From IMG/VR virus record IMGVR_UViG_2681813263_000014: a stretch of DNA of 5,518 nt; one strand, given 5' to 3'. The position numbers and the translations under genes are program-made. The notes below the pieces were generated by a model. The model saw nothing but the letters and a program-made list of their open reading frames with translations, ran no database searches and had not been told where the DNA came from. Positions 1-334 of the stretch are shown in pieces. Within the stretch, counting starts at the first letter, position 1. Every line of letters begins with the position of its first letter. The DNA comes from a virus. Its lineage: Duplodnaviria; Heunggongvirae; Uroviricota; Caudoviricetes.

Positions 1-280
1 ATGTATCAACACGGTTCAGCAACACCCGATACTTTTTCTAGGCTTCCACCACCAGCACGACAAGATGCCGCATACAGTGACCCAGTCAGTCCAGTTTTCA
101 GACAACCAGTGCGTCACCTTTTTGAAGGCGCTTTAAAGCACGTTTTAATCCAGGTCGGCCTGTCCTTGTTCCGCTTAATTTATCTTCAAATATTTGTTCA
201 TATCCTGCACAAACAAGAGCGTTTCGTTGCAGGTCTGTATTCTGGTCATTTGTTGATACCCTTACATAGCCAATCAGCAC
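1..280 (-). pseudogene. pin: Serine DNA invertase, Gin/Pin/Cin/Hin family, N-terminal part; probable pseudogene, and truncated by the window edge
   Basis: Minus-strand translation from GTG at 280-278 gives [60 protein letters not shown], the typical N-terminus of Pin/Gin/Cin invertases, including the catalytic-serine context YVRVST. A GGGAG Shine-Dalgarno lies about 7 nt upstream. The frame hits TGA at 100-98 where these invertases have Trp, then continues as [11 protein letters not shown] with further in-frame TGA and TAG codons. A full invertase of about 190 aa would also run past position 1. The ORF track extends the start to 304, which adds 8 unconserved codons. Confidence 0.6.
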
Positions 281-334
281 GCTGAATCTCCCGTCCAAAA
301 GCACAAATCATGCCATGCAGGCCAGAAACCGCCA

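Follow-up and report, generated by a model that had tools for sequence, protein, structure and literature searches.

The 5,518-nt stretch of DNA analyzed here (the window) very probably begins with a dead Gin/Pin-type invertase stub fused to the end of a tail fiber assembly (tfa) gene, beside a tail fiber switch that is still inverted by the invertases of other prophages. According to the scheme we propose, codon 78 of the invertase gene would have been joined in frame to the last 33 tfa codons by illegitimate recombination. Only codons 1 to 78, the N-terminal half of the catalytic domain, are left, and no recombinase can be made from them; the later TGA at codon 61, the TAG and the Cys27Tyr replacement are further decay of an already non-functional sequence. 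The stub would keep a cis-acting enhancer sequence, and the two crossover sites are intact with matching centers. Because enhancer sequence and sites are retained, the 2958-bp segment would stay a substrate for the invertases of co-resident prophages, in ST131 the P2-like Phi1 and Phi2 invertases, and its inversion would exchange the fiber C-terminus together with its chaperone gene. The evidence consists of the anatomy of the locus (Table 1), the order of its mutations, a precise inversion between sister genomes and the intact invertases present in those genomes.

Table 1. Features of the window and the evidence for each (positions of the 5,518-nt stretch)
Feature	Position	Strand	Evidence or remark
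tfa 3' part, in frame after invertase codon 78	1..45	-	tfa-end homology; Caudo_TAP match
Invertase remnant, codons 61-78, pinE/cin-like by sequence type	46..100	-	coding nt 181-235: 49/55 nt identical to intact pinE (L004), only 32/55 to Mu gin
Invertase remnant, codons 1-60, gin-like by sequence type	101..280	-	coding nt 1-180: 175/180 nt identical to Mu gin, 172/180 to the intact EC958 Phi1 invertase gene
Enhancer-homologous stretch (Fis-binding 'sis' element), coding nt 19-90	191..262	-	71/72 versus Mu gin
Left 26-bp crossover site	335..360		TTATCTAAAACC TC GGTTTACGAGAA; inverted-repeat pair
Invertible segment, 2958 bp, with two alternative fiber C-termini and tfa genes in mirror arrangement	348..3305		in-silico inversion
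Silent alternative set: promoterless fiber C-terminus to 1311, tfa' 1314-1847	361..1847	+
tfa paired with the expressed fiber C-terminus	1876..2403	-	homologue annotated in EC958 and NCTC86
Side tail fiber gene, expressed configuration, 993 aa	2405..5386	-	constant part 5386-3306, variable part 3305-2405
Right 26-bp crossover site, inside the tail fiber gene	3293..3318		TTCCTGTAAACC GA GGTATTCGATAA; inverted

Translation of the minus-strand frame running from 304 to 2 revealed three stops, TGA at 100-98, TGA at 88-86 and TAG at 40-38. The 68-codon open reading frame at 98-304 owes its length to a mechanical choice of start, a GTG at 304. The true start of the remnant, as placed by alignment with the intact invertase gene of EC958 Phi1, intact pinE, P1 cin and Mu gin, is GTG 280-278; it coincides with the GTG at which Mu gin begins, and a Shine-Dalgarno sequence, GGGAG, precedes it at 292-288. 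Counted from this start, the two TGA triplets are codons 61 and 65. At codon 61, Gin, Cin, Pin and the EC958 Phi1 invertase all have TGG (Trp), while at codon 65 an Arg codon was changed from CGA to TGA. The TAG is derived from a TGG (...EAWKKY...) and lies inside the tfa-derived part, outside the invertase part. Codons 1 to 60 include the catalytic Ser9 in GYVRVST (GYxRVS motif). With stops at codons 61 and 65, and with invertase homology ending at codon 78, the remnant has no uninterrupted open reading frame of approximately 190 codons. A 94-aa ATG open reading frame on the plus strand (1-285), antisense to the stub, is likewise mechanical and unsupported, and overlaps the minus-strand homology throughout.

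Strain NCTC86 matched window positions 1-110 at 100% identity, and many ST131 genomes matched them at 98%. Positions 1-520 recur at 99.4% identity in EC958 and many other independent complete genomes, which differ by three substitutions and keep every one of the stops. The stops are real and not sequencing errors, since they recur in hundreds of complete E. coli genomes that are independent of one another. An origin of the stops in faulty sequencing or assembly close to the end of a contig, with an intact invertase continuing leftward, is practically ruled out, even though the feature sits at the very edge of the window and a sister lineage has TGG at codon 61: the junction and all three stops are shared by complete genomes that were sequenced independently and number in the hundreds, syntenic genomes have the 3' end of tfa and then unrelated genes on the left, and the TGG-bearing copies, too, have the codon-65 TGA and the truncation instead of the roughly 120 further open codons that the sequence-only reading had associated with such an error.

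The gene is also truncated. In local alignments, invertase homology stopped at window position 46, corresponding to codon 78 of about 190, and alignment to intact tfa started at position 46. In line with this, a sensitive search with positions 1-110 returned two classes of matches, namely, E. coli invertase genes over 45-110 (82 to 89%) and tfa genes over 1-51 (88 to 98%, with 94 to 98% for the tfa 3' ends). The tfa part comprises the last 33 codons of that gene; in syntenic genomes, it reaches its stop 46 nt past the window. When the stop-repaired translation was scanned with Pfam, a Resolvase match (positions 2-91/145) was followed by a Caudo_TAP match (104-130/131), whereas in that scan the intact EC958 Phi1 invertase matched Resolvase over 2-144 and HTH_7 as well. 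Neither alignment nor Pfam revealed helix E or the C-terminal HTH_7 domain in the stub, where the tfa 3' end takes their place; furthermore, positions 1-45 and the left flank gave no alignment to invertase codons 79 onward.

The left flank was read from the syntenic genomes of EC958, NCTC86 and JJ1886, which stand in for the window's own strain. The PGAP annotation of each covers the same 180 nt under the label 'recombinase family protein, incomplete, missing C-terminus'; an incomplete tfa comes next, and then non-invertase genes. Leftward from the window, the order is the end of tfa, a short hypothetical ORF, the gene of a SAM-dependent methyltransferase, more pieces of tfa and DUF4376, and part of ompW beside trpA; in none of these three genomes was invertase sequence found left of the window-equivalent position.

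It is extremely unlikely that we are dealing with a full-length invertase gene inactivated by point nonsense mutations alone, which would be revertible or suppressible. The frame does run on past the stops, into residues that seem related, but invertase homology gives way to tfa residues at position 46 and no HTH_7 domain follows the stub. Repair of the stops could not restore an invertase, because the gene is truncated at codon 78 and fused to tfa. The sequence-only reading had attributed the inactivation to in-frame stops after 68 conserved Pin/Gin-like codons. The gene is dead, the N-terminus is gin-like and the first TGA does replace the Trp codon of these enzymes; this TGA is, however, codon 61, and truncation and fusion have to be added to the stops. 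Of the next 30 codons, regarded there as invertase related and interrupted by two more stops, only 17 (97-46) are of invertase origin, positions 45-1 being tfa, so that the TGA at 88-86 falls in the invertase part but the TAG at 40-38 does not. Alignment against pinE, gin and cin, which was to distinguish substitutions from frameshifts, revealed substitutions (TGG>TGA and CGA>TGA), but also that the homology itself comes to an end.

The sequence at the junction (marked by a slash) is GTGGTGGA / AGCCTAG. Its parents are of the pinE type, ...GTGGAGGA / GTTGCG, and tfa, ...TTGCTTGA / AGCCTGG, and have only 2 to 3 nt in common at this point. Since the microhomology is limited to these nucleotides, the junction sequence points to illegitimate recombination. 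A quasi-crossover site, which would have allowed an invertase-mediated deletion, was considered and rejected: the junction has no likeness to the 26-bp site, and the microhomology is 2 to 3 nt. Also rejected was a candidate for the reciprocal tfa-pin product, H35 from strain 99RCEF, in which an intact tfa is followed by a differently truncated invertase gene. In that strain (L003, 4682-5145), the invertase gene is on the same strand as tfa, is without approximately its first 90 nt and is frameshifted. Invertase genes at lambdoid fiber loci thus appear to decay repeatedly, by different routes.

The fusion was found in no isolated-phage record in a search of isolated phages. An exact junction scan of the GTDB species representatives gave a sole match, the 2.5-kb contig JAEWTL010000008.1 (L013), labeled 'MAG: Bacillota bacterium'. 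This contig is 99.5% identical to DNA of E. coli ET450 and carries the stub and a diguanylate cyclase gene; it is probably a mis-binned Enterobacteriaceae contig in a Bacillota MAG. The junction was found in 588 genomes, a number that may include non-colinear joined matches such as H35 and is less sturdy than the orientation counts given below (302 and 153).

The invertase part itself has two kinds of relatives. As judged from nucleotide identity, coding nt 1-180 go with gin and coding nt 181-235 with pinE (Table 1). Gin-like matches from isolated phages ended at window position 90, and the residues MRHLVVLV (codons 61-78) fit pinE/Cin and not Gin. When positions 46-190 were used as a query, no intact E. 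coli invertase gene covered both parts at high identity; the matches were gin-like (90-190, approximately 92%), pinE-like (46-119, 82 to 89%) or approximately 71% identical overall. By sequence type, then, the stub is a mosaic of a gin-like part (codons 1-60) and a pinE/cin-like part (codons 61-78). Because identity switches from gin to pinE, the divergence after codon 60 mostly reflects a change of parent and not faster decay.

Sister loci allowed the changes to be ordered. In strains ET450 and PSS-08-1, the junction and the TGA at codon 65 recur in another chromosomal and prophage context, but codon 61 and the tfa codon that became TAG are still TGG, and codon 27 is TGT. The truncation and R65*, present in these strains, thus came first, and the TGA at W61, the TAG and C27Y, absent from them, came later. 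We conclude that the truncation and the codon-65 TGA, common to every copy examined, are old, and that the Phi4-type lineage, to which the window belongs, later acquired the TGA at codon 61, the tfa TAG and Cys27Tyr. The change of Trp61 to a stop is late decay of an already dead gene.

The same junction occurs in at least two contexts, the Phi4 type between trpA and ompW and the ET450/PSS-08-1 type next to a diguanylate cyclase gene. In ET450 (L010, 1409-1735) and PSS-08-1 (L011, 1409-1735), the pin'-'tfa fusion adjoins a different invertible segment, beside the diguanylate cyclase gene; in PSS-08-1, the crossover site is of the e14 type and the first approximately 50 nt of the gene are pinE-like. 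Since the fusion adjoins different segments and sites in these strains, the stub was moved between prophages or re-mosaicked by recombination.

To the right of the stub, both crossover sites are intact. The central dinucleotides of both crossover sites match (TC and GA, in inverted orientation), and an inverted repeat (331-360 and 3293-3322) encloses the two 26-bp sites; the left one maps to EC958 positions 1487865-1487890. The fiber gene at 2405-5386 is a prophage tail fiber gene according to the annotation of related genomes, and the silent set is annotated in EC958 as 'tail fiber protein, missing N-terminus' plus tfa. Inversion in silico converted the 993-aa fiber to an intact 1014-aa fiber with 696 N-terminal residues in common; these lengths assume that the masked lengths are true, since N runs in the silent fiber C-terminus (572-592 and 762-777) and in the Ala/Ser-rich repeats of the expressed fiber (4415-4589) were read as X. 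A second inverted repeat, 1314-1472 and 2245-2403 (159 nt, 71% complementary), corresponds to the 5' ends of the two convergent homologous tfa genes.

The stub also contains a stretch homologous to a recombinational enhancer. In the P1 record, the Cin enhancer is annotated as cin nt 19-90. The corresponding window positions, 262-191, agree with both Mu gin and EC958 Phi1 at 71/72 nt; the sole change is G>A at coding nt 80 (window position 201), and the stretch lies approximately 85 bp from the crossover center. For comparison, the Hin enhancer is 65 bp long, has a Fis site at each end and is located approximately 100 bp from the crossover site (McLean et al. 2013, PMC3798978). Near the ends of the retained stretch, at coding nt 22-36 and 71-85, two G-N13-C 15-mers were read by eye as candidate Fis sites. 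Judging from this conservation, we infer that the retained stretch would act as a Fis-dependent enhancer.

The segment inverts in trans at sister loci. The orientation of the window was found in 302 complete genomes (e.g., EC958, 4/1-1, 4/4, U13A-U15A and 2017_APHA). The opposite orientation, contiguous with the same stub, was found in 153 complete genomes (e.g., JJ1886, JJ1887, MNCRE44, 4/0, U12A and 2019_APHA), using as a query positions 1-347 joined to the reverse complement of the segment's far end (100% coverage, 98.9% identity). Both counts come from assemblies, each of which fixes one orientation of a possibly mixed population. ST131 strains with the same stub occur in both sets. Furthermore, EC958 flipped in silico at the central dinucleotide was identical to JJ1886, with 0 mismatches over approximately 6.6 kb (beginning 1 kb to the left of the window and ending at position 5640), and the exchange was limited to the interval between the arm-specific bases flanking the site center. 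Among 5,426 complete E. coli genomes searched with megablast, the closest match to the whole window had 62% coverage and 95% identity.

Beside the segment there is only the dead stub, and intact invertases were found in other prophages of the same genomes: in EC958 Phi1 (199 aa, Resolvase plus HTH_7), in EC958 Phi2 (190 aa) and in a P2-like prophage of U13A (199 aa). We infer that the window's own strain would have such an invertase as well, and that in ST131 the Phi1 and Phi2 enzymes would be those acting on the segment. For EC958, the passages of Forde et al. 2014 (PLoS One 9:e104400, PMC4134206) that deal with Phi4 describe its invertase, EC958_1582, as severely truncated and without the HTH domain, report that both orientations of the 3106-bp Phi4 segment were assembled from PacBio reads of one culture, propose that the Phi1 invertase acts on it in trans, and cite cross-complementation among Gin, Cin, Pin and Hin. 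Thus, two points of the sequence-only reading stood: that the switch moves only with an invertase acting in trans agrees with the inversion in sister genomes and with these passages, and the 5' part that would bear the enhancer was kept. EC958 also has an annotated frameshift in trpCF and a prophage lom gene cut by ISEc12, an IS21-family element (L001, 920-2277 and 12460-14520).

Very little speaks for the possibility that the two orientations arose by RecA-dependent homologous recombination between the short inverted repeats. The longest unbroken identity between the arms is approximately 13 bp, and on homology so short an inversion frequency like the one described at the end of this paragraph is far above that of RecA. 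The EC958/JJ1886 exchange was mapped around the central dinucleotide with no other change, which is the signature of conservative site-specific recombination. The sites do belong to an imperfect inverted repeat of 30 to 36 bp, as can also be seen in Table 3 of PMC4134206. The relevant passages of that paper nevertheless report that about half of the reads were flipped for the Phi1 segment in one culture, and that both Phi4 alleles were assembled.

Expression of a 60- to 64-residue N-terminal peptide with a function of its own, for example, in modulating other invertases, is very improbable. The start codon and the Shine-Dalgarno sequence are intact, and the PGAP annotations of ET450 and PSS-08-1 include a CDS of 64 aa named 'recombinase family protein'. 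Against such a function, the fragment is without the DNA-binding domain and without helix E, the main dimer/tetramer interface of serine recombinases, and changes pile up in it (W61*, C27Y, D41G and T57A).

A somewhat different idea is that the stub was kept for its enhancer, the switch being a non-autonomous inversion module that relies on the invertases of co-resident prophages and is spread between prophages by recombination. We consider this doubtful. It is favored by the finding that the same junction adjoins different invertible segments in at least two contexts. However, the stub differs from Mu gin at 1/72 positions inside the enhancer stretch and at 4/108 outside, which is too few to tell selection. 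No selection signal supports the idea, and Phi4 itself is degraded. Since the Phi4 prophage of EC958 is degraded, switching of its tail fiber is unlikely to serve a viable phage.

For annotation, this means that the stub is to be labeled a fragment of an invertase pseudogene joined to a fragment of tfa, and for assembly, that the flanking 3-kb segment is to be expected in either orientation or mixed. More generally, the locus is a population-wide example of cross-talk between prophages, in which the recombinase of one element varies another, defective element. Such cross-talk has been known for decades from Gin, Cin, Pin and Hin, and since 2014 also from this locus.

A dead invertase combined with inversion in trans is already known at a near-identical locus, Phi4 of EC958, from the passages on this prophage in PMC4134206. 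Compared with those passages of Forde et al. 2014, the anatomy of the tfa fusion, the gin/pinE mosaic and the order of mutations are added here, as is the census of orientations (302 versus 153). The Phi4 stub is alike (99.4% over positions 1-520, three differences), the gene order is the same, and the sites Phi4_3prime and Phi4_5prime of Table 3 in that paper are identical to the left and right sites of the window. In contrast, the Phi4 segment measures 3081 bp from center to center, compared to 2958 bp in the window, which comes from another strain, and the fiber sequences differ in part.

The G segment of Mu is similar in several respects. The first 180 nt of the stub gene are 97% identical to gin, the distance from the crossover center to the start codon is the same 67 bp, the mirror arrangement Sv-U / U'-S'v is the same, and so is the gix-type site with its GA center. 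Mu Gin, however, is an intact 193-aa enzyme acting in cis, whereas the stub has 78 codons, and the host element of the window is not a Mu-like phage but a lambdoid prophage with J, lom and stf upstream. Over codons 61-78, the stub shares its sequence type with the invertase genes of the e14 P segment (pinE) and the P1 C segment (cin), and in P1 cin the enhancer lies in the 5' coding region, like the homologous stretch of the stub. Both of these segments encode their own active invertase, which the switch in the window does not.
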